Positions 3,873 through 26,508 of a DNA stretch of 32,537 nt are shown in pieces. This DNA is from an uncultured Muribaculaceae bacterium. GTDB taxonomy: Bacteria > Bacillota_I > Bacilli_A > RF39 > UBA660. The notes below the pieces were generated by a model. It did no database searches. It saw only the letters and a program-made list of their open reading frames with translations, and was not told the DNA's origin. The translations under genes were made by a program, and so were the position numbers. Within the stretch, counting starts at the first letter, position 1, and each line of letters opens with the position of its first letter. The stretch is from contig CAZIDO010000003.1 in NCBI GenBank assembly GCA_964538005.1, positions 1 through 32,537 on the forward strand, written 5' to 3'.

Positions 3873-3896
3873 AGACGATTAATTCGTCTTTTTTTA
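3873..3896 (+). terminator. Rho-independent terminator of recU-ponA
   Basis: agacga (3873-3878) / tcgtct (3884-3889) stem, 5-nt loop, then a T-run, immediately after the TAA. Confidence 0.8.
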
Positions 3897-3930
3897 TGTT
3901 GATTTAACAAATTATTGCATAAAAAAATTA

Positions 3931-4431
3931 CTATTGTAAGTAATTTACCTTTTGTAGTAATTTTTTAGTTCCACTTTCTCCAACCATTTCATTAAGTAAT
4001 GACATATCAGGTTCTTCTGCATATAATTGTTGTTTTACCTTAGTCGAAGAAATATCCTGATATAAAGGGTCAACATCAATAAAAGTTACTTTTCCTTTTA
4101 AATTTAGCACTCTATAATAAAACCCTAGTTTATAACAGTATAAATAATCTTTATAATTACGATATCCTCTTACAATAGATTGGGCATCATATAACAATTG
4201 TTGAATTTCCTTATATCCTTCATATATATCAATATCTGTCTCTTCACCAAAAATATCTTTTGCAAACTCTAATCTCTCTGGCAAACTAAAAAATTCAGTA
4301 GTTTTTAATTCATTTTTACAAATACATACTTTTACTGGCTGCTCAAAATAATTTTGTGCTTTTTCTAATGTGTTTTTGTGAGATAAGTGAGCAGGGTTAA
4401 AACTGCCAACATAAATAATTTCTTTATTCAT
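3931..4431 (-). CDS. CoaD-like (phosphopantetheine adenylyltransferase family) nucleotidyltransferase with a divergent active-site motif
   Basis: 166 aa. IYVGSFNPAHLSHKNTLEKA aligns by eye with CoaD PGSFDPxTxGHLDIIxRA. SIVRGYRNYKDYLY matches AILRGLRxxxDFEYE, and DISSTKVKQ matches the ISSS motif. Its start overlaps the nth stop by 8 nt. Confidence 0.55.
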   Translation of the reverse strand: MNKEIIYVGSFNPAHLSHKNTLEKAQNYFEQPVKVCICKNELKTTEFFSLPERLEFAKDIFGEETDIDIYEGYKEIQQLLYDAQSIVRGYRNYKDYLYCYKLGFYYRVLNLKGKVTFIDVDPLYQDISSTKVKQQLYAEEPDMSLLNEMVGESGTKKLLQKVNYLQ

Positions 4432-5056
4432 AATTTTTATACACCTTACAAATACTCTTTAATCTACAATTTTCACATTGTGGATTTCTAGCCATACAAT
4501 GATATCTACCAAATAAAACTAATTGATGATGTCTTTTGCATAAATCTTCTTTTTTAAATTTTTTATTTAATTTAACTTCTATTTGATATGGATTATCCCC
4601 TTCTTTAGCTAAACCTAATCTAATACTTACTCTTGATACATGCGTATCAACAGCAATACAAGGAACATTAAATATATTGCTTAAAACTACATTAGTTGTT
4701 TTTCTACCAACACCTGGTAATGATTCTAAATATTCACGATTATTAGGAACTTTACCATCAAAGTCTTCAGTTAATCTTTTAGCAATTTCAATTAAATTAC
4801 TAGCTTTTTTATTAAAAGTTCCGATTGGTTTAATTATTTTAATAACTTCATTAATATCTGCTTTACTTAATGATTCTAAATTGGGATATTTACTAAATAA
4901 GATTTCGGTAACCATATTAACCCTTTTATCGGTGGTTTGGGCGCTTAACATCGTGGCAAGGACTAATTCATAGTCTTTAGTGTAATTAAGCTCACAACGG
5001 GGATTAGGGTATAATTCATCAAGGTAATTTTCAATCATTTTCATTGAGCCAGTCAT
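4424..5056 (-). CDS. nth: Endonuclease III
   Basis: HhH-GPD motif LPGVGRKTTNVVL and C-terminal 4Fe-4S cluster CMARNPQCENCRLKSIC. Start chosen at the ATG at 5056, preceded by AAGAGG at 9 nt. The track ORF extends to 5098 inside dnaD. Confidence 0.9.
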   Translation of the reverse strand: MTGSMKMIENYLDELYPNPRCELNYTKDYELVLATMLSAQTTDKRVNMVTEILFSKYPNLESLSKADINEVIKIIKPIGTFNKKASNLIEIAKRLTEDFDGKVPNNREYLESLPGVGRKTTNVVLSNIFNVPCIAVDTHVSRVSIRLGLAKEGDNPYQIEVKLNKKFKKEDLCKRHHQLVLFGRYHCMARNPQCENCRLKSICKVYKNYE

Positions 5057-5660
5057 ACTCGAATACCTCTTTTTTACTTGTCTTTTTAGTTTTACCACGT
5101 TCTTTTTCTAAATCAATATTAGTTTTAATTCCTTTTTTTTGCCATTCATATAGTATTTTATCAATATATCTTAAATTAGTAACTCCATTATATATTGCTT
5201 CCTTAAGGGCTAAAACAATTGTTTCTTCAGTAAAGTCGGCTTCTAACCAAGCTCCAATTATTTCATATTCCATCGGACTTAAAGTTCGTCCGAATTCACT
5301 CTCAAATAAATCAAAAATATTAGTTTCTTTTTTCACTTCTCTTTCTTCCATTAAAAAGAATGCTAATTTATTATATAATTCGTCTACGCATACATATTCT
5401 TCACAAACATTATTATTAGTTACACTTTCTAATTTTAAAACATCTTTTTTAGACAAACTGCTAATAATAGTTAATACATCTATCGGTTTTATTTTTAAAT
5501 CTTTAGCAATTCTTTCAGGATCAAACTCAGAATCGTTTAAAAGGTATATTAAAACAACTAACTCTTTTTCAGTTATTTTTAAATCTTTATAATGGGTTAA
5601 TAGTAATTTAGGAATCACTATATTGCCGTTCTTTAAAATGTCTATCATTTTTCCTGTCAT
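5031..5660 (-). CDS. dnaD: Replication initiation / membrane attachment protein DnaD
   Basis: C-terminal DnaB_2/DnaD repeat ...SPMEYEIIGAWLEADFTEETIVLALKEAIYNGVTNLRYIDKILYEWQKKGI. dnaD-nth adjacency as in Bacillus. Confidence 0.85.
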   Translation of the reverse strand: MTGKMIDILKNGNIVIPKLLLTHYKDLKITEKELVVLIYLLNDSEFDPERIAKDLKIKPIDVLTIISSLSKKDVLKLESVTNNNVCEEYVCVDELYNKLAFFLMEEREVKKETNIFDLFESEFGRTLSPMEYEIIGAWLEADFTEETIVLALKEAIYNGVTNLRYIDKILYEWQKKGIKTNIDLEKERGKTKKTSKKEVFEYDWLNEND

Positions 5661-5691
5661 AAAACCACCTAAGTTATATTATAGCTTAATT

Positions 5692-6279
5692 TTAGTAATT
5701 TGTCGACGGTACAATGACAATATTATATGACTCTTCATTTAATTTTAAAATTGTGAAACTATCAGTACTAACAATATGATTATCAATCCATGATTCTTGA
5801 ACTTCTTTTAAATATTTCATTGGAATTTTATCATCATAGAATATAGCTTCTATTTTATCATCAACGATAAATTCTTGGTCCAAATTGGTCAAATAAACAA
5901 AGTCACAAGCTTTTATTTCACTGTTTTCGGTAATACATAAAGTATAATCGTCTATTTTAAATTGATATATATTATCTTTATAGATAACTTCTATTTTATT
6001 GGTTTTTACTTTTTGTTTATCTAAATAAACGGTTTGAGGATTACTGTCAAATATTTTTAAAACTTCATTTAACTTTTTATCATTTCCTTCTTTTAAAACA
6101 AATAAATTACTACTGTCTTCATCATTTATTAAAATAGAATTACTAGTATCTAATCTTAAGAAAACTATAGTAATTTCTTTATCTTTAATTTTTAAATCTA
6201 TTTTTTCAGCTTTATATGCTTTTGTATTAATAGCGGTTAATGTTAAGATGAATATAAAAATAATTATCATTTTTTTCAT
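5692..6279 (-). CDS. Secreted/exported hypothetical protein
   Basis: N-terminal signal peptide MKKMIIIFIFILTLTAINTKA. No recognisable domain. Confidence 0.55.
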   Translation of the reverse strand: MKKMIIIFIFILTLTAINTKAYKAEKIDLKIKDKEITIVFLRLDTSNSILINDEDSSNLFVLKEGNDKKLNEVLKIFDSNPQTVYLDKQKVKTNKIEVIYKDNIYQFKIDDYTLCITENSEIKACDFVYLTNLDQEFIVDDKIEAIFYDDKIPMKYLKEVQESWIDNHIVSTDSFTILKLNEESYNIVIVPSTNY

Positions 6280-6307
6280 AAAAAAACACCCTATTAAAAG
6301 GTATGTT

Positions 6308-7399
6308 TTATTTATAAGTCTTAGTAATATAATTAGTTAAATTTTCTTTGATATTTTCTAATTCACCACTAACTAATTTATACTCCAAGTCATTGATAAT
6401 TAATTTTAAAAAGCTACCTGGTTCTTTTTCTAAAATTCCACAAATTTCTACAGGTGTTAACACGATATCTAACTTATTATGAATAGGGATACTTGCGTAT
6501 ACTTCATTTAGTTCTTTTTTACTTACTTCATTTAATTCACTTGCTAAAGTACAAATATATAAACCATATTTATATAGGACGTCTTTATCTAGTAAACTTT
6601 GATTTTTTAATTCTAGTATTTGCACGATAGCTTCTCTTTCACTAGCACTGAAAGGATATTTATCTAACACATCTAGCTGTGCCCATGTAACTATCATAGA
6701 AGGCGTTACTTTTATTTTCCTTAAGTTAGGAATATCTAAATGTTCAGCTAATCGAAGTTCACATAATAAATTAATACCATATTCTTTGTTAGTACTGGCA
6801 AAAATAATATTCAATTCTTCTCGTTTACGATCTTTAGAAAGTTTTTTAAGTAAATAGCCATATTTTTTAATATAGGCTTTTAAAACCGGTTCCAATTCAA
6901 AATCAAGGACAGTTGCAAATCTAACTGCTCTTAATATTCTTAAAGCGTCTTCCTTTAATCTTAATTTTGGATTACCAATCATTCTAATAATACGGTTATC
7001 TAAATCACTTTTAGCATTTAATAGATCAATTTCTTTGCCTTCTTTATCAATACATAAAGTATTTATTGTAAAATCTCGACGTTTTAAGTCTTCCTCTAAA
7101 CTATCTATATATTCAATATTAGTTGGTTTTCGATGATCAATATATTTCCCTTCTTTGCGAAAAGTTGTAATTTCAAATCTTATTTTTTCGAATGATATTA
7201 TTACTGAACCATATTCAGAATTAGTCATTATTACTTCTGGAAAAATATTCATTATTTCCATCGGGGTAGCATCTGTACATATATCGACATCAACTGAACT
7301 TCTTTTTAAATATAAATCACGGGGATAACCACCGATAATATACACTTTATAGCCAAAGTTTGAAATCATCTCTAGTACTTTTATGGCTGAATTATACAT
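6308..7399 (-). CDS. cca: tRNA nucleotidyltransferase (CCA-adding enzyme family)
   Basis: Class II nucleotidyltransferase head motif GGYPRDLYLKRSSVDVDICT plus RRDFTIN and the tRNA-binding RAVRFA motif. Confidence 0.85.
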   Translation of the reverse strand: MYNSAIKVLEMISNFGYKVYIIGGYPRDLYLKRSSVDVDICTDATPMEIMNIFPEVIMTNSEYGSVIISFEKIRFEITTFRKEGKYIDHRKPTNIEYIDSLEEDLKRRDFTINTLCIDKEGKEIDLLNAKSDLDNRIIRMIGNPKLRLKEDALRILRAVRFATVLDFELEPVLKAYIKKYGYLLKKLSKDRKREELNIIFASTNKEYGINLLCELRLAEHLDIPNLRKIKVTPSMIVTWAQLDVLDKYPFSASEREAIVQILELKNQSLLDKDVLYKYGLYICTLASELNEVSKKELNEVYASIPIHNKLDIVLTPVEICGILEKEPGSFLKLIINDLEYKLVSGELENIKENLTNYITKTYK

Positions 7400-7421
7400 T
7401 TTACCATCTCCAATTGTCCAA

Positions 7422-7446
7422 GAAAAAAAGGCTAAAATAAGCCCTT
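7422..7446 (-). terminator. Intrinsic terminator after hup
   Basis: Minus strand AAGGGCT-TATTTT-AGCCTT hairpin (one bulge) followed by TTTTTTT. Overlaps the hup stop. Confidence 0.55.
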
Positions 7447-7717
7447 AGTTCAAAGCGTCTTTTAATTTAGCGCCAGCTTTAATTGATACTGCAGTTCTGG
7501 CAGGGATTGTAACAGGAGCTCCTGTTCTTGGGTTACGACCTTGTCTAGCAGCTTTCTTTTGAGCAGCAAAAGTACAGAAACCAGTTAAAGTAACTTTACC
7601 TTCCTCTTTTAATCCTTCTACTATTCCGTTCATAACAGCATCTAATGCTCTAGTAGCATCTGCTTTTGTAAATCCTGTTTCTTCTGCAATGTAGTTAACT
7701 AAGCTTTGTTTAGTCAT
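7445..7717 (-). CDS. hup: DNA-binding protein HU
   Basis: 90 aa. ...GFGTF-type core (TGFCTFAAQKKAARQGRNPRTGAPVTIPA) is canonical HU/IHF. RBS AGGGAGG. Confidence 0.95.
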   Translation of the reverse strand: MTKQSLVNYIAEETGFTKADATRALDAVMNGIVEGLKEEGKVTLTGFCTFAAQKKAARQGRNPRTGAPVTIPARTAVSIKAGAKLKDALN

Positions 7718-7902
7718 GTTTTATACCTCCCTTAAATTTGTTAAGCTATCTTTGCTTACAATAAAAGAATACCATTTTTACAAGGAAAAAGCAATATATT
7801 TTACCTTTTTTTTACCCTTTTACTTGTTTTTTCATCAATTTGTCACTATATTATAACCTTTATTGGTGTTTTTTTATCTGAAATTGAAAACTAAAGCCTA
7901 TT

Positions 7903-8397
7903 TCATGGCTTAGCAATTGTATATTGCCCATGATTACTTAAGGTTTCTACTACTTGTTCTCTAGTAACATCCCAGCTTGCTTTCTGATATAAAGCTTGGA
8001 TTTTAGCAGCTTCCATCTCAATCAGTTCTGCCTCAGAGTAAATACCTAAAATTGTTGTTTCAAATGGTCCAATATTCTCTTTTTCTTCAGCTTTAACATG
8101 TTTTAAAGTTCTCCAGGTTAAAGTTTCTGGAATAACTGCTTCAATTGTCAAATTTCCTATATCCCTTTTTCTAGGAAGTTCATCTTGTTCATGCATTAAT
8201 TGAAAATATCGTTCGGTTGGCATTCCATTCTTCTCATATTCAAAATGAATAATTTTACCAACATTATTAATTTGATCAGCCATACGCATCTCCTCCCTAG
8301 TAACCTTTTTATCGGTCAGATCAAGAGAAGATCTGGTTACACATACATTGTAAATCTTTACTTTTTCTTTGTCAACAAAAAACATTATGTTTTTCAT
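7903..8397 (-). CDS. Hypothetical protein, co-oriented and tightly spaced after spoIVA
   Basis: 164-aa ORF starting 7 nt after the spoIVA stop. No motif recognised. Confidence 0.5.
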   Translation of the reverse strand: MKNIMFFVDKEKVKIYNVCVTRSSLDLTDKKVTREEMRMADQINNVGKIIHFEYEKNGMPTERYFQLMHEQDELPRKRDIGNLTIEAVIPETLTWRTLKHVKAEEKENIGPFETTILGIYSEAELIEMEAAKIQALYQKASWDVTREQVVETLSNHGQYTIAKP

Positions 8398-10956: not shown

Positions 10957-12246
10957 TTATTTTACTTTTATATTGCCAGTACCTGTTTTTATGGTTAATT
11001 TGCTTTTAGCGAATCTATTATTATTTTCAATTTTACTATTACCATCTTTGGTATACGCATCTATATAGATATTATTTATTTTTCCAACATTTATGTTTCC
11101 GTCTTCGCTTTTTATCACTGAATTACCAATTCCATTTATTTCTTTTATATTAATATCTCCCATATCAGTTGATATAATTAATTGGTAATTTACTTTATCA
11201 ATATCGATATTTCCATAACTCGTTTGAATATAAAGGGCCTTTAGTAATCTATCTGGTAAATAAATATCAATACCATCATAATAAGTAGGTAAAATGTTGT
11301 CAGTGCTTTTAGTAACTATTAAAGTATTATTGCGAATATAACTAGCGCTAAATTCTGTTTTTTTACCATATACAATCACTTTTATTTTGTCATTGTCAGA
11401 CTCTTTTATATTTATAAAGCTATCATCAACAGTAACTTTTAAAGCACTTATATTATTTGAATTAAACTCTCGCTCATTTAAAATTGTTTTAGGTAAAGTA
11501 TTTGGGTCCTTGGTTACTAATGTGAATATTATCAATATAATTGTAATAATTACAGCTACCCATATTAAGAGCTTTTTTTTATTTTTAGGTGCAATAATAA
11601 AATGATGAATCAAATATGTGCTTATTAATATTAACATAATTATAAATATTAGCATCCATAAATTGTTGTCTAAACTATCAACTGCAATTACTAAATAAGT
11701 GAATGCAACTAAATATAATATTAAACTTATTATAACCGTTTGAAGATTTTTATTTTTTGTTGGTGTTTTTATTATGTCTTTTGTTTCAATAATTGGCTTT
11801 TCCTTTTGATTTAATCCTTGTTTTTCATTTGAATTGTCAACTTTAATTTGACTTTCAAGTGGAATTACCGTATCAACAACTTTTGTTTTAAAAATGAAAT
11901 CTTCTATTTTTTTGTTGCAAATTATTAATAAAGCGGTACTTATAGGCCACAAAAATATTAAAACATTTCTAAATACTATAATTGTTTTTTTAGGCATTTC
12001 ATTATTATCAGTTAGGATTTGTATCCTTAATATTTTTTTACCAATACTTGCATTTTTAAATATTAAATCTTTTGTTAGAAGTAAGATATAACCTATTAGA
12101 ATATAACTACTTAAAATAAGTAATTCACTTTTTTGTTCAGTAAAAATCAAAAATATTAAAAATATTAATGTACTTAAAAATGAACTTACAAACATTATAA
12201 TGAAAAAATCTATTAAAAATGCAACTATACGCCTTAATATATTCAT
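10957..12246 (-). CDS. Membrane protein: N-terminal RDD domain, central TM bundle, C-terminal DUF4097-like beta-helix (putative adhesin/LiaG-YvlB type)
   Basis: MNILRRIVAFLIDFFI... is RDD-like. Several TM helices. The C-terminus has periodic GNIDI / GDINI / GNINV / GNIKV turns. RBS GAGGT. Confidence 0.65.
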   Translation of the reverse strand: MNILRRIVAFLIDFFIIMFVSSFLSTLIFLIFLIFTEQKSELLILSSYILIGYILLLTKDLIFKNASIGKKILRIQILTDNNEMPKKTIIVFRNVLIFLWPISTALLIICNKKIEDFIFKTKVVDTVIPLESQIKVDNSNEKQGLNQKEKPIIETKDIIKTPTKNKNLQTVIISLILYLVAFTYLVIAVDSLDNNLWMLIFIIMLILISTYLIHHFIIAPKNKKKLLIWVAVIITIILIIFTLVTKDPNTLPKTILNEREFNSNNISALKVTVDDSFINIKESDNDKIKVIVYGKKTEFSASYIRNNTLIVTKSTDNILPTYYDGIDIYLPDRLLKALYIQTSYGNIDIDKVNYQLIISTDMGDINIKEINGIGNSVIKSEDGNINVGKINNIYIDAYTKDGNSKIENNNRFAKSKLTIKTGTGNIKVK

Positions 12247-12259
12247 AATTTTACCTCGC

Positions 12260-12960
12260 TTAATTTTTATTAATAAGTCTTACTATATAACTAGAAATAT
12301 TAGCTGGTAAGACAAAATATGAACATTGAATGATAGAATCTGTATTTTGATGCGGATATACTATAACTTTTCCAGATAAACTTATATTTATTCTCCCGAC
12401 AGTTTTATATATCGGATAATTGTCAAAATAAATATTTACTATAATTTCCTCATTTCTGAATTCTTCTCTTATCTGTTGTTCACAATCAGTGCTATCTCTT
12501 AACAAACTTTTAAATTGATTTGTTATTTGTTTATCTGTTATTTTTATATTTTTATTTTATTTATTTTCTAAAACTATTGTTGTGTTTTTTCCATATATAT
12601 TTGGTAATTGGATACCCTTTTTCATTAGAAAATGTTTATCAGATAATGAATTATAATTAATTTGTATAAAGTTTACTGCTGAATCGTTTTCATAAATTGC
12701 TATTTTAGTATTTGTTCTTTGATATGAAACAGTTTCTAAATCAATGGGGGAACTATCTGCATAAGCTTTATCTGTTTTTATAATTTTTCCCACAGGATGC
12801 CAATACAATGCTTCTTCATATACTTCTCCATTATAGTACGCATATTTATAGTTATCTTTTATAAACGAAAACGCTATTATCCAAAAAAATAAATATATCC
12901 CTATCGTTATAATAAGAGTTCCAGTCCCAGCAATTATTATAGTTTTTTTATTTTTTTCAT
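12260..12960 (-). pseudogene. Decayed small membrane-anchored protein gene (one A-run frameshift plus one in-frame TAA)
   Basis: The ATG at 12960 reads MKKIKKL then stops. The -1 frame is open from there (…KKTIIIAGTGTLIITIGIYLFFWIIAFSF…, a TM anchor) into track ORF 12557-12808. That ORF and 12260-12505 share a frame and are split by a single TAA (12557-12559). Neither downstream piece has an ATG or SD of its own. Confidence 0.45.
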
Positions 12961-13010: not shown

Positions 13011-13613
13011 TTATGGTATAAAATAATTTGTTCTTATTCCATACTTTTCAAATAAAAATTTTCTATTTTCATTTGTCAGACCTTTTAAAACATTTGGCAT
13101 CTGTTCCACTATCTTTTCATATAAGTTATTTTTACTCACTGAAAGGTCAAGTGGTTTTTTTGAATCTGTCAGCCAATTACTTATCAATTTATATTTTTTA
13201 GTTTTAGTTATAATTCCTATTTGATGTATGAAATCACCAGTACCATTTCTAACCATCAATTTTGCCTTTTTATAAATTAACAATATATCATCATTTTTAA
13301 TAAATTCTAAATTATAGATATTTACAATATAATTATCAGTTAAAATATTGAAACCGTTTTTATAAAGAACATTGTCTAATTCGTCATTAATCAATTTCTT
13401 GTTATTTAATTTTAAAAATCTATAACTTGGTAATATCCACTTTAATAGTTCACTAATAATTACTATTGACATAATAAAAATAACAACTTGTAATGCTAAG
13501 GAAAATAAAGATAACTTGAGTTGGAAAACAAGTATCAAAAATAAAAATGCTAAAAATATTTGAGAAAATTTTATTAAACTAAATTTTACATACACTTTAT
13601 TTATATTTTTCAT
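13011..13613 (-). CDS. Two-TM membrane protein; candidate immunity protein for the Rhs C-terminal toxin
   Basis: 200 aa, ATG with AGGAGA RBS, 41 nt downstream of the Rhs stop. TM hairpin approx aa 16-58, then a ~140-aa soluble domain. The immunity role is inferred from position only. Confidence 0.6.
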   Translation of the reverse strand: MKNINKVYVKFSLIKFSQIFLAFLFLILVFQLKLSLFSLALQVVIFIMSIVIISELLKWILPSYRFLKLNNKKLINDELDNVLYKNGFNILTDNYIVNIYNLEFIKNDDILLIYKKAKLMVRNGTGDFIHQIGIITKTKKYKLISNWLTDSKKPLDLSVSKNNLYEKIVEQMPNVLKGLTNENRKFLFEKYGIRTNYFIP

Positions 13614-13654
13614 ATAACGATTCTCCTGTTCAATATTAATTTATTATAAAGGCT

Positions 13655-16600
13655 TTACCGAGGAACATTATATCCAAATTTCACATGCCCACCGGCAAAG
13701 TAGTGAAAGTCATAATCAATTCCAATAAATATTTCTTCATTTGACGCCTCGATTGAAAAAATGTTTTTAATAGAAAAAGCTATACTATTACTATGTTTTG
13801 ACTCAGGACAATTAAATTGTTCTATTTCATTAATACTAATATGTTGGTCGTTAGTAGTGAAAGGATATGGATGATCATAATTATGAGTTAGTACAAATGG
13901 ACCAATGGTTACTGATAGGCAATTTTCAACTATTTGCTTTGTACCATTCACGGTTTCAACAGTGCTTATATCGTTGTATGCACTAAAAGGTATTTTGGGG
14001 TTGGATATACCAGTACCATATCCATAACTAGCAACATAATTATTTTTGTTAATAATGCTTCCGACTTTGGTAGCAGTTTTTTTCCCAATATTAACAACAC
14101 TTTTTACTGCGTTAACTACTTTCTTTACAACTTTTGCAACCTTTTTCACAACTTTTTTAGTTGTCTTTTTTATCCAATTCCATATGGCTCCACGTCCACT
14201 TGAATCTACCTTGTTTATTGGATCATTATCTACATATGCATATAAATTATTTCCTGTTAATGAATTATTTTGTATCATTACATTATCAGCATTAATAAAT
14301 CTTCCCCATTTTGGATTATAATATCTACTATTTAAATAGTATAATTTTGTTTCTTTATCATAGTAATAACTTCTATATCTAAATGGATTTATATGCGCTA
14401 CATGTTTTTCATCAATTATATCATTATTGTCTTTATTTTTTATTGATATAATGTTTCCCCAACTATCATATTGGTATTTGGCAACCAAATTATAATTGCT
14501 ATCTAGTAGTCCTATTATATCATCTTGGTTGTTTTTTAAATAATAATATAGCTTTTCATTATATTTAAATCCAATTAAATCATCTATATCATTATGTATA
14601 TAGTATATCACAGCACTACCAATATTTTCAAATATTATTTTATTCCCTTCTAAAAGGTATACAGTTTTTAAACCATTAACAACTTTACTTGTTCTAATAC
14701 CATTATTATCATATTTATAATTTATTATATAATTTGAATCTGAATATGAATTTAATTTCCTACCATTTATCCAAGATAGTGAAGCATCTCCAATTGTTAG
14801 AGGGTTACCTATTTCATCATAAGTTATTTCTTGATTATTAAATTTAGTTAATTGGTCTTTCCATTTTAAATTGTTATATTCATATATATCCTGATCAATT
14901 AAATTATCAGTACCTAGCTCAAATATTTTTTTGAAAAGTATATTACCTAAATTGTCATAAGTATATTTAACTGTCTGATTAGTTAAATAATTATCTTCAC
15001 TAATAAGTTCATTGTATTCATCATAATAATACTTATTTTCTAAAATACCATTATGATATATATGGGTTATGTTATTTAGTTTATCAAATCTATATGAAAA
15101 TTCAGCATCATTCATGGTAAACTTTTTAACTAAAGTAGATGTTCTTCTACCATTTGTAACATACTCATAATTAGTTTTAATTTTATTATCAATATTACTT
15201 GACTCTATTCTGCCTAGGTTGTCATAAGCATAATTAACTTCATTTGAATCAAAAATCATTTTAGTAAGAGCATCATCTTCATCATATATTTTTTTTACTT
15301 CTTTTGAAAAGATAGGTCCATCATATTCAATGTCTGTTATATTACTATTTATATCATATTTATATTTAATTCCAAACTCATTACTTCTATATTCAATTAA
15401 TCTTTTTCCAAGATCATATTTATAATTATAAACATCATCGTTTGATATTACTTTTAATAAATCCCCATTATTTCCATATTTAAAATTATAAGTGTTATCC
15501 ATTTTATTAATAGTTTTTACTCTATCAAATTCGTCATATTCAAAATTAATTGTTTGATTATTCCCATATATGGTTGTTAATAAATTACCATTACCTCCCT
15601 CATAGTTATTAGTAATAAGTGATATATCATCACCAATTTTAATTGATTTCGTATTTAAAAATTCATCATATATAAAATTATAATCTCTTGTTTCTTGGGT
15701 AATTTTACTTAATAGATTATTATCATTATAATTATATTCTACTTCTCTATTTCCATTTTTAATTGATATAGGTCTTCTTTTGCTATCATACTCATAATTA
15801 GTTGTTTGATTTTTAGCATTAGTAACTGATTTAGTTATTCCTGTAATTAAATCTATATCATAAGTGGTTTCATTGAGATTACTATCTGTAACACTTTTAA
15901 TAAATTTTCCATCTTCGGTATATTTCGTATACGTTTCAATGAATTCTTTCTCATTGTTGGTTTCAAAGAAAAATTCAAAACTAGAGTCTTCATCAACAAA
16001 GAACTCACCAATTAAATTTTTATCTTCTACTTTTACATATTTATTATCTTTTTTTACGGCTAATGAATAACTACCATTCTTATTTTTAATTAAAGTAAAT
16101 AATGAATTATCGCCATTAAATACGGTTAATAGTAATTCATCATTATAAATAGTAAAGTATTTATCAGGAACAAGTGAGTGACTTATTTTATAATACTCAT
16201 CTATTTTTTCTAGCTTCCATAAATCATGATGACTGCATTCTTCTTTTAATTTTATAGAGTTCATAATATTCCTTAAATATAAATTGGTTCCCTTTGCTCT
16301 TATTTTATATAATCCTTCAGTTATTTCGCCATTAATACCTTTTTTGTTTACTCTAGTTACGACTGGATTATTATTTATATCATATTTTATTTCACTACAA
16401 ATACCCATTTCTGAGATACTATTAATTAATCTGTCAGGAACATTATTGTCATATTCATACATTAATTTTTTACCTTTTGGATTAGTTGAATTTATTAGCT
16501 GATTATTTTTGTTGTATTCAAAAGAACTAACTTCCTTATTAGTACCAACTACAGTTTTTAAATTACCTTTAGTATCATAATCGTAGCCACTTGAACTTAC

Positions 16601-19600
16601 ACTTTTAAACAAAGATAAATTAGTTATATATAATTCATTTGCATCACCTTCCTGATTGAGATAAATCTTGAATTTATTATAACCCGCTTCTGTGGTATAT
16701 GATGCTGAAAAATATTGCCATTCTTCCTCACTTGGATTTAAATAAGTTATTGGTACACCGTGTTGGGTATGCCAATCATCTGGATCATTGTAAAAGATTT
16801 GAAGCCATACTGCACTACCATTAATTGCTCCTAAACCATCTGCTGAAATCCCCTTATTTTTATACCAGAATGATATTTGATATTCATCATCTTTTTCTCC
16901 ACCAATATTAAATTCTTTTGACATATATGTATCATATTCTGGATCCATTTTTATTTTTAAAGCTTTGTTACCATCTTCTAAAGTAACTACTTCGTGACGT
17001 GTTGAATCATTATCAGAACTACCATATTCCCAGTCACCTAAACCATTTTTAAAATCAGAATTTTCTAAATAATTAAAATGATTGACAACTTCTCCCTGTT
17101 CTAACTGAATATCATCCATATATGATGTTCCACTACTTGTAAAATATATTTTTAATGATAAATCACTAACTGAATCAAGAGGATAGTAAATTGTAACGTC
17201 AGTTCTATTAAACCCATCATTAATTGGTACCCACTTACCTTTTTCTTCAACTATTTTATTATCAGCATCTAAATATGAAAGACCAATTCTTACACTATTA
17301 TTGTTTTTAATAAATGCACTAAAAGTATAGTAATTGCCTTTTTTAACACTTACATTTTGGATAACTTCTTTTTCAGCTTCAGTACGAACCATTTTTAAAC
17401 TTTTTAGTCCGCTATTAGCGCATTCCTCTGATATACTCAATTCCACACCGTCGGTAGGTTGAAAATAAATATTATCTGTTTCAAAACTAATGTTTTTCAG
17501 TAAATTATTAACATATTTAACTGGTATTTTATTTGATATTAATTTATTTTTGTATTCATCGTATTCACCATATCTATGGACTGTTCCATAAGCATTAGAA
17601 ATATTATTTTTATCTTTTAAATTACTAGTGCACACAGGATTACCTTCTTCATTGAAACTAATTACTGTAGCTCTATTTTTGTTATCAATAATTGTTGTGG
17701 ATTTATTGCCATATTCAATTGTAAAATAAGCTCCATTTTGATTATTTATTCCATATTCTGTTACTTTCTTTATTTTATATGGTTTTTGTTCATAATATTC
17801 GTAATTCATACTGGTGCCATCAATATCAGTTATTTTATTTATTAAATTACTTTCATTGTAAGTAAAATAAGTATATCCCTCTAAATTTAAAATACTATTA
17901 ATTTTGCCATTAGTATAATTTAAAGTTACTGTTTTATCTGGACTGATAATTGAAATTTTATCTGTTTCATATGTTATATTTATTTTTTGATTATTAGCGT
18001 CAATTATTTCCCCAATCAAGTTATTAGAATTATAATTAATTGTAATAAAATTACCTTTTATATCTTTTATTTCAGATAAATAACCTATATTATTTCTTTT
18101 GCTAAATTTCATATTATTGCCATATTTATCTTTTAAAATATAGTAATCTGAATTTACTTCAATCTCCATATTTAAATTGTCTTCATCTTGGTAAATACCA
18201 TTTTCTTCGTAAAAATAATGTAATGTTCCATCTTCATCGAAATATTGAAGATAATTGGTAGTACCTATAGTTTCAGGCTTTATAGTTTGCCATAAATTAA
18301 ATTTATAACCAATTCCTATTCCATTATCATTATTTAAAACCACATCATTGGTATTATAATATAAGCTTAAATTAGCTGGCATTTTACCACCTATAGTTGA
18401 ACCTAGTCCAAATGCAGCAATAAGATTTCCATTATATGTATTTTCATAAACCGTACCATTATTAAATGATTGTGATTGATAGTTCATATAACTTTCTAAT
18501 CCATTTTGGTTACGATAAACTATTTGTAATCTTGGGTGAGGACTGTCACCAGTAATTGTATTATTTTTAGAATAAAATGCTGGAAGCATGTTTTGATCAT
18601 ATACTTCTTTATGAGATTTTATCATTATGCCATTATTAGGAGTTCCTGTATACCATTTTTTAACTAATGATGTTATATTCCCTCTAGAGTATGAAGGGAT
18701 AATATGGGTTGTAATAACATTACCTTCCCAAGTATATTCCTCATAACTTCTGGAACACCAAAATGCCGCCTCAATTCTCGCATCATATTTGTCATTCATA
18801 TTAGACCAATTGGCTCCGGTTTCTGTAAAATCAGTAGTTAATCGATGTACATCAACCAACTTTATACTATCTGTTCGTGGCATCAATGTATAATCAACTA
18901 AATTAATGTTAGCTTCATAGATTTGACTACCTGTTCCTATGGTCGGAAGTTCAAACTTTAAAAGGGTTCTATTTATAACATCATTGCCATTTACTTTCTC
19001 TACTCCGGCCTTTAAAATATCTTGACTATTTCTATCAACATTTGTGTCCCATGGATAAATATAAGTATCATACACATTGTTTTTAGTATCAGTTGAAATA
19101 GTTGGATCGATAATTACAGGATATAAAGTATTACTATCTTTTAACCATTCTGCATCTAAAACCAGATCAAGTTTATAGTAATCTTTCATCTTTGTTAATT
19201 TATAATTAATGTTATTATTTGTTTTATTATTAGCATCAATCATATAAGGCCCATCTAAAGTAAATAAAATTTGATTGTTTTTTAAAACAACTATGTTTTT
19301 ATTTCCAAGTTCTAAATCTAAATCAGTTTTTAATACAAAACTTAATTCGCCTATATTACCCCTATCTTTTAAAATGAAACTTTCTTTTATTTTAGTAGAA
19401 AGTATTTTATATTCTAAATCGATATTTTCAAAAACATTTTCATATTTAATTTTTGAAACAAATTTTGAAGATGTTTCTGTTAAATTTATAGGCACCCTAT
19501 TTCCATCAACTAATTCAATGCTTAAATAGTGGTTATCAATCTCAAATTTCATTAAAGTTCCTGCACTATTTTCTTTAAAATAAGTTTTGTATGAATTATT

Positions 19601-19774
19601 CTTATTAATGTAATAATTATTTTGTTTAATTAATGTATTATCAATTTCCTCATATTTTCCATCTTTTATAAAATGAATATCGTCGGAATACATTTTAGCT
19701 ATAATAGTACCATTTTCTTGGAGAAAATGTTTTTCTTTTTTACCCCTTTTATCTAACAGTTCTATTTCTTTCAT
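13655..19774 (-). CDS. Rhs/YD-repeat polymorphic toxin, 2039 aa
   Basis: Many YD repeats (YEYDSKRRP, YAYDNLGRI, YTYDNLGNI, YKYDNNGIR, YQYDSWGNI ...). Rhs-associated core NPFRYRSYYYDKETKLYYLNSRYYNPKWGRFINAD...NLYAYVDNDPINKVDSSGR at aa 1796-1861. DNRLRE-like N-terminal module (…VINRTLLKFELP…). 178-aa variable C-terminus. Confidence 0.95.
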   Translation of the reverse strand: MKEIELLDKRGKKEKHFLQENGTIIAKMYSDDIHFIKDGKYEEIDNTLIKQNNYYINKNNSYKTYFKENSAGTLMKFEIDNHYLSIELVDGNRVPINLTETSSKFVSKIKYENVFENIDLEYKILSTKIKESFILKDRGNIGELSFVLKTDLDLELGNKNIVVLKNNQILFTLDGPYMIDANNKTNNNINYKLTKMKDYYKLDLVLDAEWLKDSNTLYPVIIDPTISTDTKNNVYDTYIYPWDTNVDRNSQDILKAGVEKVNGNDVINRTLLKFELPTIGTGSQIYEANINLVDYTLMPRTDSIKLVDVHRLTTDFTETGANWSNMNDKYDARIEAAFWCSRSYEEYTWEGNVITTHIIPSYSRGNITSLVKKWYTGTPNNGIMIKSHKEVYDQNMLPAFYSKNNTITGDSPHPRLQIVYRNQNGLESYMNYQSQSFNNGTVYENTYNGNLIAAFGLGSTIGGKMPANLSLYYNTNDVVLNNDNGIGIGYKFNLWQTIKPETIGTTNYLQYFDEDGTLHYFYEENGIYQDEDNLNMEIEVNSDYYILKDKYGNNMKFSKRNNIGYLSEIKDIKGNFITINYNSNNLIGEIIDANNQKINITYETDKISIISPDKTVTLNYTNGKINSILNLEGYTYFTYNESNLINKITDIDGTSMNYEYYEQKPYKIKKVTEYGINNQNGAYFTIEYGNKSTTIIDNKNRATVISFNEEGNPVCTSNLKDKNNISNAYGTVHRYGEYDEYKNKLISNKIPVKYVNNLLKNISFETDNIYFQPTDGVELSISEECANSGLKSLKMVRTEAEKEVIQNVSVKKGNYYTFSAFIKNNNSVRIGLSYLDADNKIVEEKGKWVPINDGFNRTDVTIYYPLDSVSDLSLKIYFTSSGTSYMDDIQLEQGEVVNHFNYLENSDFKNGLGDWEYGSSDNDSTRHEVVTLEDGNKALKIKMDPEYDTYMSKEFNIGGEKDDEYQISFWYKNKGISADGLGAINGSAVWLQIFYNDPDDWHTQHGVPITYLNPSEEEWQYFSASYTTEAGYNKFKIYLNQEGDANELYITNLSLFKSVSSSGYDYDTKGNLKTVVGTNKEVSSFEYNKNNQLINSTNPKGKKLMYEYDNNVPDRLINSISEMGICSEIKYDINNNPVVTRVNKKGINGEITEGLYKIRAKGTNLYLRNIMNSIKLKEECSHHDLWKLEKIDEYYKISHSLVPDKYFTIYNDELLLTVFNGDNSLFTLIKNKNGSYSLAVKKDNKYVKVEDKNLIGEFFVDEDSSFEFFFETNNEKEFIETYTKYTEDGKFIKSVTDSNLNETTYDIDLITGITKSVTNAKNQTTNYEYDSKRRPISIKNGNREVEYNYNDNNLLSKITQETRDYNFIYDEFLNTKSIKIGDDISLITNNYEGGNGNLLTTIYGNNQTINFEYDEFDRVKTINKMDNTYNFKYGNNGDLLKVISNDDVYNYKYDLGKRLIEYRSNEFGIKYKYDINSNITDIEYDGPIFSKEVKKIYDEDDALTKMIFDSNEVNYAYDNLGRIESSNIDNKIKTNYEYVTNGRRTSTLVKKFTMNDAEFSYRFDKLNNITHIYHNGILENKYYYDEYNELISEDNYLTNQTVKYTYDNLGNILFKKIFELGTDNLIDQDIYEYNNLKWKDQLTKFNNQEITYDEIGNPLTIGDASLSWINGRKLNSYSDSNYIINYKYDNNGIRTSKVVNGLKTVYLLEGNKIIFENIGSAVIYYIHNDIDDLIGFKYNEKLYYYLKNNQDDIIGLLDSNYNLVAKYQYDSWGNIISIKNKDNNDIIDEKHVAHINPFRYRSYYYDKETKLYYLNSRYYNPKWGRFINADNVMIQNNSLTGNNLYAYVDNDPINKVDSSGRGAIWNWIKKTTKKVVKKVAKVVKKVVNAVKSVVNIGKKTATKVGSIINKNNYVASYGYGTGISNPKIPFSAYNDISTVETVNGTKQIVENCLSVTIGPFVLTHNYDHPYPFTTNDQHISINEIEQFNCPESKHSNSIAFSIKNIFSIEASNEEIFIGIDYDFHYFAGGHVKFGYNVPR

Positions 19775-21166
19775 TTATAACACTCTTTTCCACATATAAA
19801 CAACTAAATATGGCGGCATATTACCAGCGGCCCCAGTTCCTGTAGTTCCGGAAGTGCTAGCATTAGTAGTTATACTATGGCTATGGTCACCACTGTTTTC
19901 AGTGTAACTCATTTGACTATAATCACCATTGGCTGATCCTGGTGCGGTAATGCATCTCCAATTTACTTGAACTCCAGAACCATAAGTAGATGTTCTCCTT
20001 GATGTAATATGACTATGATCCCCACTATTTTGGGCAGTACCACTTAATGCTGGAATAGTGTGCGCATGCGTTTGTAATTCAGCACTTCCACCAGTTGTAC
20101 CATTTGCATATGTCCCTCCAGCACCTAATAAAAATCTGTCTTTAATTTGTTCCCAGGTTCCACCAAATAAAACTGTTGGATTTGTATTATCAACTGACAT
20201 ATAAATACTGCCTATTGGATATATCGTTCCTAGTTTTTCATTTATTAAGTTTTGGACATCGGCAACTGTCATCGTTCCACCGGCATCACCTTTTTCACCT
20301 TTTGGTAATACCAAATTTAATACTTGACTCGGACTATCACCGGTAATCGTTGCACTCGCTTCATCACCATGAGAAACAGTTCCAATAATTAAATTGTTGG
20401 CTGGCCCAATATCACCTTTTATTCCCTGGTCACCTTTAGCGCCTTTTAGTGGATTAAATACTGTAAGTCTTGATCCCTTAGCAAACTGTATTTGGCTATC
20501 ATCTAGTGATAAACTTATTGAATTAATATTATCAAAAGTTTGGGCAAATACACCACCACCAAACCATATTGACTGTCCTCCACCAACCGTTCGATAAAAT
20601 TTTAAAGTATAATTCACTTTTTTCTCTCCGTTAGGGTTTTCAGATATATATAATCGTCCTTCGGCAATTACTGGAAATTCATTGTTTGGTCCATTAGTCT
20701 GCAAAAATTCACTTATATCATCACCGCTTTGAACATAATTGAATCTTGAAGTTAAAGTACCGTTTCCATATATATTTCCACTGGCATTTATGTAACTATG
20801 ATGGTATCCAGTTGTTTGGTCGTTTATTTTTATTTTTATATCTGTAGCTATAGTTGAATTTGTATATCCTATAGCAATAAATTCATATACTCCTCCTTCA
20901 TTTAAAGCATCTAAATTGTTTATTTTTATTATTGGTAAATTATTTTCTAAAATAACTTCACCTGCTACATTTGTTTGAATTTTAGATGTAATACTATTTA
21001 CAATCAAATTACCTTCACTATCTAAACTAAATTTATTATTATTTGAAGTAATACAATCAACACTTGCATTGTTAACCTCTAAATTAAGTTTATCTTCAGT
21101 TTTAGTAAACGCATCTTTAAAATAAATATCATCTAAAGTAAATTCATTATTATTTTCTATATTCAT
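19775..21166 (-). CDS. Phage tail-fibre-like protein with collagen Gly-X-Y tracts, HxH motifs and a tail-collar-type C-terminus
   Basis: GAKGDQGIKGDIGP and GEKGDAGG. C-terminal YPIGSIYMS...LFGGTWEQIKDRFLLGAG...THAHT...SGDHSH (x2)...NMPPYLVVYMWKR. The stop TAA (19775-19777) directly abuts the Rhs ATG. ATG at 21166 preferred; a GTG at 21175 is the track start. Confidence 0.85.
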   Translation of the reverse strand: MNIENNNEFTLDDIYFKDAFTKTEDKLNLEVNNASVDCITSNNNKFSLDSEGNLIVNSITSKIQTNVAGEVILENNLPIIKINNLDALNEGGVYEFIAIGYTNSTIATDIKIKINDQTTGYHHSYINASGNIYGNGTLTSRFNYVQSGDDISEFLQTNGPNNEFPVIAEGRLYISENPNGEKKVNYTLKFYRTVGGGQSIWFGGGVFAQTFDNINSISLSLDDSQIQFAKGSRLTVFNPLKGAKGDQGIKGDIGPANNLIIGTVSHGDEASATITGDSPSQVLNLVLPKGEKGDAGGTMTVADVQNLINEKLGTIYPIGSIYMSVDNTNPTVLFGGTWEQIKDRFLLGAGGTYANGTTGGSAELQTHAHTIPALSGTAQNSGDHSHITSRRTSTYGSGVQVNWRCITAPGSANGDYSQMSYTENSGDHSHSITTNASTSGTTGTGAAGNMPPYLVVYMWKRVL

Positions 21167-21203
21167 TGTTTTCACAACCTTTCTTTTAAATTATTAATCC
21201 TTC

Positions 21204-21254: not shown

Positions 21255-21737
21255 CTAAAACACGTTTTTTGTAGTTTCAATTTTATGTGTTAATAATTTT
21301 TTTAATTTCTTCAAACCAATATCTATACTAAATTTTACAGCTCTAGGTGTACAACCATCAATTTTGGCAATTTCTTTTAAAGTCATATTTTCAAAATAAT
21401 ACATTTTTATTCTTTCCTTTTGGATAATGGGTAAAAGATCTATTGCTTTTTCCAATTCTTCTTTTACTATTTTTTTTACCACTTCTTCTTCCAAATTGGA
21501 ACGATTTTCTTTATTATCAACATTATTATTGATGTGTTCGATATGGCGCTCATATTTATTCATTGCTGACTTATCTTCTAATTCAAAGACATTAAAAACA
21601 TTATATATTTCTTTTTTTACCTCAACAGTACATTTAATTCCTCTACCATCAATAAACTCTACAAAATATTTATTTTCATGATAATTAATGGTATAGGGAT
21701 TATCTCTATGTTTCCTTCTTTTCGGGGTGATATTCAT
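21255..21737 (-). CDS. Sigma-70 region-4-type HTH DNA-binding protein (no region 2)
   Basis: C-terminus LPIIQKERIKMYYFENMTLKEIAKIDGCTPRAVKFSIDIGLKKLKKLL is a region-4 HTH. The N-terminal ...YFVEFIDGRGIKCTVEVKKEIYNVF...ERHIEH pattern recalls sigma-like proteins of Firmicutes mobile elements. RBS AGGAGGG. Confidence 0.7.
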   Translation of the reverse strand: MNITPKRRKHRDNPYTINYHENKYFVEFIDGRGIKCTVEVKKEIYNVFNVFELEDKSAMNKYERHIEHINNNVDNKENRSNLEEEVVKKIVKEELEKAIDLLPIIQKERIKMYYFENMTLKEIAKIDGCTPRAVKFSIDIGLKKLKKLLTHKIETTKNVF

Positions 21738-25559: not shown

Positions 25560-26489
25560 TTATGTCAAAATTGATTTACTCAAACATTTTTGATGTTTTT
25601 CTGAGGCATGTGAAGCAGCTTTAGTTATTCCTAATGTGCGCGCACTGCTAAGTGCGAAAAAAGGAGTATTTCTCAAGTTTGTTGTATAGAAATAATTTCG
25701 TACTGTTTTGCTTGCTACCGCTAAACTTGCATCGTTCAAATGCATATCATTAAACATTGTAGCTGGCATGAGAGCATTTCTAAGTCCTGTTGGTAAGGTG
25801 CTAGTTCTATCTATTGGATGAGGATTTATAATAGTTTCACCTTCTCTGGTAAACATTTCACTTTGACCATATATTTTTTCAAAATCAACATATGCCCCAC
25901 CTACAATGTCTTGTGGTTTAGATTTTTTTTCAAAAGGTCCAATCATTCTGAAATCACCAAAATAAGATATGCTAGCAATTGCTTGATATAATTCAATTGG
26001 TGTAAAAGTATCTTGTCTTTTTAATAAAAAAATTGCTGTTAAAATATCCTGACGATTTTTTTCTATTCTTTTCACTATTTCCGGAGTGGCCTCGTCTAAA
26101 ATTACTGGTTTAGTTAAACGACCCGCCATCCCGAAATAGCGCCATGTATCTAAATCTTTTTTTAAAGCATCCTGTTCAATTATCATCATTTTTATTTGGT
26201 CTTGATTATACGAAAACTTTAAACAACCAATTTTGTCATAATATGATTTATTTCTTGTTCTCTTAAAGATTGGTTTCCCATTTTTATCTAAACTATAGTG
26301 TTCTGGATTTTTCTTTAAATTCGCTTCCAACCATTCATTAAAATTGTCAACGGTAATTATAACATCTTTTTCTGGTTTGTCATTGTCAGTATATCCTAAT
26401 TGTTGATACATACCCGAACCGTATCCAATTATATCTAAAATAGGAGGCAATTGATCTTTCAAGCTCCTAAGTATTTGGATATTTTCCAT
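25560..26489 (-). CDS. Tam41/Mmp37-family protein (mitochondrial-type phosphatidate cytidylyltransferase fold), paralogue A
   Basis: IIGYGSGMYQQ, YFGMAGRLTKPVIL and IASISYFGDFRMIG correspond to the Tam41 motifs YGSGVFxQ, AGRLQKPV and GLSYxGDxRM. Confidence 0.7.
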   Translation of the reverse strand: MENIQILRSLKDQLPPILDIIGYGSGMYQQLGYTDNDKPEKDVIITVDNFNEWLEANLKKNPEHYSLDKNGKPIFKRTRNKSYYDKIGCLKFSYNQDQIKMMIIEQDALKKDLDTWRYFGMAGRLTKPVILDEATPEIVKRIEKNRQDILTAIFLLKRQDTFTPIELYQAIASISYFGDFRMIGPFEKKSKPQDIVGGAYVDFEKIYGQSEMFTREGETIINPHPIDRTSTLPTGLRNALMPATMFNDMHLNDASLAVASKTVRNYFYTTNLRNTPFFALSSARTLGITKAASHASEKHQKCLSKSILT

Positions 26490-26508
26490 ATTTCCCCCCC
26501 TGTACTAC

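Follow-up and report, generated by a model that had tools for sequence, protein, structure and literature searches.

A predicted, exchangeable Rhs toxin tip combining a cationic amphipathic helix with an undescribed all-beta domain and a candidate membrane-bound immunity protein

Rhs polymorphic toxins with orphan cassettes are well known as a type of system. Among colicins, contact-dependent inhibition (CDI) toxins and toxins of the type VI and type VII secretion systems (T6SS and T7SS), those that act in or at the membrane are accompanied by membrane-embedded immunity proteins. In Pseudomonas aeruginosa, the toxin Tse5 has a hydrophobic helical tip of the glycine-zipper type and is countered by the membrane-located immunity protein Tsi5. 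Here, we present an analysis of the C-terminal part (13658-14389, minus strand) of an Rhs/YD-repeat protein encoded on contig CAZIDO010000003.1; the whole stretch of 32,537 nucleotides that was analyzed is referred to as the window. The closest described systems in Gram-positive bacteria are the Rhs/WapA proteins, such as WapA of Bacillus subtilis and WapA-CT1 of Streptococcus suis, and the route by which such tips travel to or across the target membrane was called enigmatic in the S. suis study (PMC12704120). In the ABP toxins, proteolysis exposes a cationic amphipathic helix N-terminal to the polymorphic toxin, and an antimicrobial peptide-like interaction with the membrane of Gram-positive targets has been proposed for this helix (PMC13460014). 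Membrane-bound immunity in Firmicutes is exemplified by TspA/TsaI (PMC7456083) and by EsxX, for which separate cytoplasmic and membrane immunity families have been described (PMC12744356).

We give about even weight to the conclusion that a Gram-positive Rhs polymorphic toxin has its exchangeable C-terminal module encoded at 13658-14389, with the corresponding immunity gene at 13011-13613. Because the tip is paired with a gene for a candidate antidote that is membrane anchored, we suggest that it is most likely a swappable weapon against the membrane of rival Gram-positive bacteria. New with respect to the described systems are the toxin domain family, two candidate immunity families and the strongly cationic amphipathic helix directly behind an Rhs autoprotease site. 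The locus is a compact test case for how such tips reach the membrane: the predicted cleavage would expose a 47-residue cationic amphipathic helix as the N-terminus of the released tip, one helix start recurs before two unrelated toxin domains in near-identical strains, and candidate membrane immunity proteins are encoded in seven of eight loci. The features on which the argument is based are the following.

13655-19774, minus strand: Rhs/YD-repeat polymorphic toxin gene, 2039 amino acids (aa) (open reading frame [ORF] list and translation; RHS_repeat PF05593, E = 5.7e-18)
14192-14470, minus strand: C-terminal plug (Rhs-associated core, aspartyl autoprotease), residues 1769-1861 (TIGR03696, E = 3.9e-18, residues 1769-1860)
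14192-14206, minus strand: core/tip junction D1857-S-S-G-R1861 (read from the sequence)
14051-14191, minus strand: pre-toxin cationic amphipathic helix, residues 1862-1908, GAIWNWIKKTTKKVVKKVAKVVKKVVNAVKSVVNIGKKTATKVGSII (charge, hydrophobic moment and AlphaFold2)
13658-14050, minus strand: all-beta domain of an undescribed, predicted toxin family, residues 1909-2039, 131 aa (exhaustive HMMER search, alignment A2 and AlphaFold2)
13011-13613, minus strand: candidate cognate immunity gene, 200 aa (ribosome-binding site AGGAGA at 13622-13627; homologues behind the same toxin domain)

The Rhs protein resembles WapA of Gram-positive bacteria in its YD shell, its DNRLRE domain, its TIGR03696 plug and its D-x-S-G-x junction as well as in having a pre-toxin region before the variable toxin, a downstream immunity gene and orphan C-terminal/immunity cassettes. 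Consistently, YD/RHS repeats were detected with PF05593 (E = 5.7e-18), TIGR01643 and, in part, NF041261; DNRLRE, Rhs_assc_core and RHS_core also matched, and the Rhs-associated core sits directly before the variable tip (residues 1862-2039; 13658-14191; 19.8 kDa), which would be enclosed by the YD shell as in the Rhs family at large. Unlike WapA, the protein lacks a Sec signal peptide (no hydrophobic signal peptide was found at the N-terminus when the sequence was read), LysM, SrtB and a SecF-like partner, and a tail-fibre-like gene abuts its start codon. Moreover, its pre-toxin region is a Lys/Val amphipathic helix and not PT-TG, and its toxin domain, which falls outside all described families, is not a nuclease. 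The locus shares with Tse5 (PMC9637101, PMC10684867) the Rhs cage and, as predicted for the window, aspartyl autoproteolysis and a membrane-active tip; Tse5-D1141A is nonfunctional. However, Tse5 is delivered by a T6SS into Gram-negative cells and has neither sequence nor fold similarity to the tip of the window, which is a beta domain of acidic character in which His and Cys residues are conserved.

The core ends in NLYAYVDNDPINKVD1857-S-S-G-R1861, a boundary that the initial annotation had called non-canonical. This was correct in the sense that DSSGR is not DPxGL: in comparison with the PxxxxDPxGL motif, P1852-INKV-D1857-S-S-G-R1861 keeps P-x4-D and the Gly, while the Pro is replaced by Ser and the Leu by Arg. 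It is, however, no anomaly. The junctions in related Rhs proteins read DPSGR, DPTGQ, DSQGH, DLSGY, DTNGN, DENGT, DHFGY, DNSGN, DVSGR, DSSGK, DPSGL and DPFGL; among them, only the D and the G are fixed, whereas the Pro and the last residue vary, and D-x-x-G-x is, judging from these sequences, the usual boundary form of this Firmicute Rhs clade. Both Asp residues of the aspartyl protease plug are present, i.e., D1857 and D1830 (14285-14287), the latter in RFINAD, which lines up with the first motif, RFxxxD(PxGL). The roles of the catalytic Asp in DPxG-type motifs are taken from PMC8636562 and PMC12704120. In Rhs1 of Photorhabdus laumondii, the second DPLGL motif provides the catalytic Asp, the D1338N substitution blocks cleavage, and the toxin begins four residues past the Asp (PMC8636562); in the Gram-positive S. 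suis WapA-CT1, Edman sequencing maps the cut to TDPSGH|IWKTLTNAY (PMC12704120). Because both Asp residues, the P-x4-D spacing and the D and G are retained and there are precedents for a last residue other than Leu, cleavage between R1861 and G1862 is expected. The plug (D1830 and D1857) would thereby cut after D-S-S-G-R1861, and the predicted released fragment would start with GAIWNW, as compared to TDPSGH|IWKTL... in WapA-CT1.

Support for an exchangeable module comes from L002, a metagenome contig of a near-identical strain, which shares the flanking genes with the window (the tail-fibre-like gene, Rhs, the RDD gene, GDPD, spoIVA, hbs and others) and the downstream DNA of which is 100% identical to that of the window except for one base. 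The main Rhs protein of L002 (2048 aa; 670-6816) ends in ...DSSGH-GAIWNWVKKTAKKVVKAVKKVVNTVKKVV..., and the same helix start as in the window (GAIWNWVKKTAKKVV...) precedes an unrelated domain, which reads as largely helical and had no significant Pfam match. It is followed by three small genes (6860-8343) for proteins of 237, 55 and 173 aa, of which the first has an N-terminal membrane anchor and an outward-facing domain; this alternative tip and its followers represent a putative second toxin/immunity set. Behind these genes, L002 contains an orphan Rhs fragment of 504 aa, the tip of which is identical to that of the window and is followed by the identical 200-aa gene; the 200-aa protein was found with identical sequence on metagenome contigs. 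In a DNA alignment, the main and the orphan copies in L002 do not differ within the core, can still be aligned in the first third of the helix and diverge after KKVV. Because the flanks are identical, the main tip differs and the tip of the window is held together with its immunity gene as an orphan, the window and L002 represent the same locus in two configurations, with the tip of the window in the main position or, in L002, in that of a putatively silent orphan. The pair thus catches a tip swap between the main (expressed) and the orphan position with flanks that are 100% identical bar one base, and the window shows a recent swap. Altogether, tip polymorphism, a linked immunity gene and orphan cassettes are all found here, with cassette arrays also in L007 and L014, and the comparison shows a module swapped by recombination as predicted for a true toxin/immunity cassette.

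A likely trace of earlier swaps lies further downstream.

12260-12808, minus strand: putative decayed orphan immunity gene (DNA alignment A6 versus L002)

This segment is a single ORF of 177 aa in L002 and two small ORFs in the window because of one G-to-T nonsense change, and the two versions are otherwise identical (alignment A6). It is a paralogue of the 237-aa gene following the alternative tip in L002, the two products being 39% identical (E = 2e-43). A possible start of the gene is located near 12960, and an A-run (ATGAAAAAAATAAAAAAACTATAA) in both strains truncates the possible signal-anchor start. Arrays of orphan Rhs C-terminal/immunity cassettes were noticed at 9139-10664 in L007, 538-5308 in L014 and 22-6906 in L011, the last of which includes a tip with a hydrophobic segment that, by its sequence, looks like a glycine zipper. 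The labels of the metagenome-assembled genomes to which the array contigs were assigned (Roseburia, Muribaculaceae and Tenericutes) look inconsistent with their sequence relatives, and the contigs may be mis-binned.

The candidate immunity gene starts 8 nucleotides downstream from its ribosome-binding site AGGAGA, and no terminator was found between the Rhs stop codon and this gene. The 200-aa protein has a hydrophobic two-helix block (approximately residues 11-61) followed by a basic soluble domain (residues 71-200; net charge +7). Homologues are encoded directly after the same beta domain in L001 (30% identity, E = 4e-12), L006, L007 and L011 (more distant, E = 1e-4). In alignment A5, which comprises four immunity homologues including those of L006 and L007, a hydrophobic block of ~50 residues is sufficient for two transmembrane helices, carries K/R-rich flanks on both sides and is followed by a conserved basic soluble domain. 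Based on the positive-inside rule, an N-in/C-in topology with a cytoplasmic soluble domain is predicted. The charge of this domain (+7) is complementary to that of the toxin domain (-6). The immunity family had no match in Pfam or the PDB, and a word-indexed search with the protein recovered only itself. Overall, the gene behaves as a cognate immunity gene and encodes a predicted membrane protein, in agreement with the membrane-embedded downstream protein that had been recognized in the initial annotation.

In two other loci, L008 and L014 (which represents the same contig region as L009), the toxin stop codon is overlapped by a gene for a small membrane protein of the RDD family (PF06271; E = 8e-9 in L014 and E = 8e-4 in L008, the latter below the Pfam cut-off). 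In L010, the nearest ORF is convergent and encodes 119 aa without a family match. Candidate membrane immunity proteins are accordingly present in seven of the eight loci (window included) and belong to two unrelated families, one with two transmembrane helices and a cytoplasmic domain and the other of the RDD type. An RDD protein is also encoded in the window.

10957-12246, minus strand: gene for an RDD and DUF4097 membrane protein (Pfam RDD, E = 6.3e-10)

In its RDD part, this protein shares 44% identity (E = 4e-20) with the 125-aa RDD protein from L014 whose gene overlaps the toxin stop codon, and the gene in the window has counterparts in all strains seen. It may be linked to the toxin family as a second immunity type; the match may also be a coincidence. 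With the RDD candidates, a widespread but functionally obscure family gains a possible immunity role. TspA/TsaI (PMC7456083) and EsxX with ExiAB and ExiCD (PMC12744356) are likewise Firmicute antibacterial toxins, in this case membrane-depolarizing ones, that are neutralized by polytopic membrane proteins, and the two unrelated immunity families of EsxX, which act in different compartments, parallel the two families described here. In contrast to the tip of the window, TspA and EsxX are LXG/T7SS substrates with helical glycine-zipper toxin domains, and there is no homology.

The description of the tip, its ORF and the core end in the initial annotation was confirmed at 13658-14191. A word-indexed search with the tip recovered one weak relative, P0001, which has the same architecture, i.e., ...YAYVDNNPINNTDDDGN, a K-rich helix of 55 residues and a domain ending in IFIGID..H..GGHIRLGF. 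Using a profile of the tip and P0001 in an exhaustive HMMER search of 1.84 billion representatives, we obtained 37 hits at E < 1e-3, of which ~30 are true; P0008, P0016 and P0025 were discarded as repetitive or unrelated proteins. The true hits form the C-terminus of Rhs proteins of the Firmicute type or of orphan fragments, and the corresponding clusters hold only 1-9 sequences, which are mostly from ENA metagenome assemblies and in a few cases also from NCBI or Logan. A non-Rhs carrier, P0019, is the closest relative of the window's version of the domain. This protein (302 aa, on an ENA contig of 1088 bp) has a lipoprotein-type signal and a long N-terminal region, followed by the C-terminal two-thirds of the toxin domain. 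A genome scan with the tip alone returned no relatives, a scan of JGI metagenomes with the family returned one locus, which is a duplicate of L009, and no member of the family turned up in 2.9 million viral contigs; the idea of a phage-borne family was dropped on the last of these grounds.

Alignment A2 contains 28 family sequences and is too diverse for pattern scanning. The conserved polar and Gly positions are D1935, H1968, H1978, C1989, H2024, G2028, H2030 and G2034; G2028 is invariant, H1978 is conserved in 25 of the 28 sequences, and the remaining six residues are conserved in at least 90%. The alignment also revealed a GxGxGxG motif in the first strand and an ending of the form FIGID..H..GGHxKxGF, and several members end in ...G-F-x-[IV]-x-W. 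AlphaFold2 with A2 gave a confident all-beta model (pLDDT 80.7, pTM 0.72) with nine strands and one short helix. The domain thereby differs from helical pore formers of the colicin, Tse5 or glycine-zipper type, which have a hydrophobic hairpin or a GxxxG zipper, in being all-beta and acidic, and its GxGxG lies within a beta strand. Based on column statistics, nearly every strand follows a strict two-residue alternation, with I/V/L/F on one face and Gly/Ser together with conserved D, H, K and N on the other; from this alternation, a last hairpin with a three-residue turn would pair D2022 with H2030 and D2020 with K2032. In line with the reading of the domain as His-rich and beta-like, it is all-beta in the model and has six His residues, four of which are at positions with His in at least 25 of the 28 sequences.

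The tip had no match in Pfam, NCBIfam or PHROGs, and none of the 28 family members matched Pfam or NCBIfam. The family profile found nothing among PDB sequences (best E = 0.34), and Foldseek gave no significant match to the PDB (best E = 0.03 with TM 0.31; TM ≤0.33 throughout) and only E = 0.006 with TM 0.28 as the best match in BFVD. The weak, nonsignificant Foldseek matches are mostly meander beta-barrels (TbpB, OmpX, OmpA, Ail, AlkL, PsbO and streptavidin). The conserved motifs do not fit a cupin, an M23/LAS peptidase, a sortase, an L,D-transpeptidase or an HNH/beta-beta-alpha-Me nuclease, none of which was returned by Foldseek, and an NCBIfam match to phospholipase A (OMPLA; E = 0.057) in one member only was treated as noise. 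The profile and Foldseek comparisons thus gave no confident match to a known toxin fold, and the earlier statement that the tip carries no recognized toxin signature stands for Pfam, NCBIfam, PHROGs, PDB sequences and Foldseek. We conclude that the beta domain represents a new, rare and predicted toxin family that is undescribed in Pfam, NCBIfam, PHROGs, the PDB and BFVD.

The 47 residues between the predicted cleavage site and the beta domain (1862-1908) include 14 Lys, with a net charge of +13 and a pI of 11.1. The hydrophobic moment over 18 residues has a maximum of 0.77, with a sharp peak for a periodicity of 100 degrees per residue; when these residues were shuffled 5000 times, this value was never attained, and on the same scale melittin has 0.55, magainin 0.51 and cecropin A 0.66. 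In a single-sequence AlphaFold2 model of the whole tip, a helix spans tip residues 2-49 (pLDDT 72-80) and is the only confident part (overall pLDDT 44). No tandem repeat was detected in the DNA, and a tandem DNA repeat was rejected as the origin of the heptad-like KKVVKKV pattern. The cationic amphipathic Lys/Val helix of the initial annotation is thus real as a predicted element, while the idea that it is a signature of the toxin family did not hold up: in L002, it stands before an unrelated tip, and in L007, the beta domain lies behind a canonical DPSGL and a nearly uncharged linker. Across the family, the linkers from the junction to the first beta strand are 36-75 aa long, with charges from 0 to +23 and hydrophobic moments of 0.45-0.77, and usually open with an aromatic pair (GAIWNW, GWLNDLW, GFFKNVF, APKWLK); they are strongly cationic in the window, P0001, L008, L010, P0012, P0014 and P0017. 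In P0021 (313 aa), a hydrophobic, transmembrane-like segment occupies the position of the cationic helix. A word-indexed search with the core end and the helix gave no matches, probably a low-complexity effect, and a DNA pattern search of metagenomes for the helix start gave none either. Because the same helix start fronts two unrelated tips, while other family members have weaker helices or none, we conclude that the helix is, as far as can be read from the alignments, a modular pre-toxin element outside the toxin fold. In a single case, an orphan tip of L007 is a cell-wall hydrolase (PF07486) without such a helix.

The likeness to the ABP/AbpT toxins of Bacillota and Actinomycetota (PMC13460014) lies in a cationic amphipathic helix that is exposed by proteolysis N-terminal to the toxin, which is predicted here. 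However, ABP toxins are Sec-secreted, and their helix is located in a BetaH domain and freed by the serine protease AbpP, whereas the helix in the window follows an Rhs autoprotease site; in addition, the toxin domains of ABP systems are strongly cationic, act as nucleases in the cytoplasm and are countered by soluble immunity proteins, as opposed to an acidic domain with a membrane-bound immunity candidate in the window. We found neither a Sec signal in the Rhs protein nor a protease domain in the neighbouring genes, with BetaH itself not having been searched for with a profile.

Taken together, we propose a model that we hold with roughly balanced confidence, in which autocleavage at R1861|G1862 frees the tip, the helix docks on the anionic membrane of a Gram-positive target, the beta domain acts at or in the membrane and the protein with two transmembrane helices neutralizes it. 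By analogy with cationic antimicrobial peptides and the ABP helix, the Lys/Val helix (+13) of the freed tip would target or insert at the anionic Gram-positive envelope and membrane. The acidic all-beta domain (131 aa), with its aliphatic face and its Gly/Ser-rich face bearing conserved D, H, H, C, H, H, D and K, would then cause damage at or in the cytoplasmic membrane, most likely by insertion of the aliphatic face into the bilayer to give ion leakage or depolarization and, next most likely, by attacking a membrane-bound substrate in a reaction that depends on His/Cys/Asp or on a metal. The membrane-anchored immunity protein may neutralize the toxin via its basic cytoplasmic domain and/or its transmembrane hairpin. 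The membrane-directed effector of a new family that had been suggested initially holds up as far as the new, rare family is concerned, and membrane action is the best circumstantial reading; as set out below, the conserved residues complicate it.

Several observations weigh against membrane action. There is no homology between the beta domain and any membrane toxin, and the Foldseek likeness to membrane barrels is nonsignificant (best E = 0.03, TM ≤0.33). The near-invariant D, H, H, C, H and H suit an active or metal-binding site no less than a purely pore-forming domain and, indeed, are more typical of an enzyme or metal site. The conserved part of the immunity protein is the soluble, probably cytoplasmic domain, which would also fit a cytoplasmic target. 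Furthermore, the beta domain is acidic (net -6; family mean -7.3), unlike the cationic ABP toxins, arguing that the ABP import model is not simply transferable. Finally, the linkers of L007, P0010 and P0005 carry a charge of only 0 to +2, arguing that a strong helix is not required for the beta domain.

Some of these observations would be accounted for if the domain were a soluble Cys/His/Asp hydrolase or transferase, or a metalloenzyme, with a cytoplasmic target, for which the helix serves in import and the immunity protein is tethered to the membrane to intercept the entering toxin. Six near-invariant polar residues typical of active or metal sites, an immunity domain with a predicted cytoplasmic location and a charge that complements that of the toxin, and the delivery of cytoplasmic nucleases by a cationic helix in ABP toxins (PMC13460014) all speak for such an enzyme. 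However, both unrelated families of immunity candidates are integral membrane proteins, and those of the RDD type are almost without a soluble part; import of an acidic domain would be opposed by the inside-negative membrane potential; and there is no similarity to any enzyme fold. On balance, we consider a soluble enzyme unlikely.

An explanation that we rate as similarly unlikely concerns the helix, which could lack a role at the target membrane and instead be a "PreT"-type segment for packaging that coats the acidic interior of the cage or prevents the tip from folding, with length and charge drifting freely. A linker of this kind, retained in the cage, is one of the cases that the initial annotation had named as refuting its reading, and it keeps some plausibility. 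The helix could serve in packaging given that the shell with its inserts is very acidic (net -54, as compared to +13 for the helix), the length (36-75 aa) and charge (0 to +23) of the linker vary widely within the family, and, in S. suis WapA, the residues that separate the cleavage site from the toxin have been assigned to contacts with the cage interior (PMC12704120). Yet, the helical phasing is almost perfect, with a peak at exactly 100 degrees and no equal among 5000 shuffles, which would not be needed by a mere charged spacer, and P0021 has a transmembrane-like segment at the same place; these two observations favour membrane targeting or insertion over packaging. Moreover, the only other toxin domain seen behind the helix, that of L002, is likewise paired with a membrane-anchored immunity candidate, so that this holds for both.

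Within the preferred reading, i.e., action at or in the membrane, the resemblance to OmpX, the OmpA transmembrane domain, Ail and AlkL is only a lead. In common with these proteins, the domain is a meander all-beta structure with long hairpins and strands that have an aliphatic and a Gly/polar face, and the alternation is compatible with an eight-stranded outer-membrane barrel; however, the Foldseek TM is ≤0.33 as compared to the criterion of 0.5, E is ≥0.03, there is no sequence similarity, and the producer and the likely targets are monoderm Firmicutes. We speculate, as a quite unlikely elaboration, that the tip could be a two-part weapon in which an antimicrobial peptide-like helix docks and a small OmpX-like barrel enters the bilayer by itself and collapses the membrane potential or, alternatively, works from within the membrane as a His/Cys enzyme on lipids, while the two immunity families counter it from different sides of the membrane. 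If true, such a two-part Rhs membrane weapon has not yet been described for single-membrane bacteria. Least of all do we expect the C-terminal domain to be a nontoxic binding or structural element, e.g., a receptor- or lipid-binding half-barrel next to an unrelated gene: while no activity is known for the domain, the weak Foldseek matches include the binding barrels TbpB, streptavidin, lipocalin and LolA and in P0019 a portion of the domain is borne by a lipoprotein that has Ig-like regions, its placement behind an autoproteolytic junction (the usual site of Rhs toxins), its occurrence in orphan Rhs C-terminal cassettes, the small membrane-protein gene of either family that follows it in seven of the eight loci, often with overlapping stop and start codons, and its exchange for other tips between near-identical strains make this very improbable.

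Upstream of the Rhs gene lies a gene whose stop codon abuts the Rhs start codon and which also precedes Rhs in L002.

19775-21175, minus strand: tail-fibre-like partner gene with collagen-like runs and a Gp10_C/collar-type C-terminus (PF21939, E = 3.6e-18; PHROG tail and tail-fibre families)

Further upstream, 21255-21737 (minus strand) encodes a protein of 160 aa with sigma-70 region 4 only, which resembles phage late regulators. The window is chromosomal and of low GC content (~27%), with genes including spoIVA, der, hbs, recU/ponA and dnaD/nth, and its DNA is that of a spore former, for which the GC content and the order of the genes point to Bacilli or Erysipelotrichales; exact matches to its sequence were found only on metagenome-derived contigs from ENA and Logan. 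In the segments 25560-27378 and 27388-29052 (both minus strand) and 29122-30961, two tandem Tam41/Mmp37-like (phosphatidate cytidylyltransferase-type) genes adjoin an ABC-2 transporter pair, and beyond them are a Phage_holin_4_1 gene, a tRNA-Ala gene (29704-29780) and a tyrosine integrase gene; this region may be the edge of an integrated element. In L001, the orphan toxin/immunity pair (1835-3424) is located directly upstream of a phage lysis cassette with genes for a protein of PHROG 4105, a holin (Phage_holin_6_1) and an endolysin (GH25-LysM).

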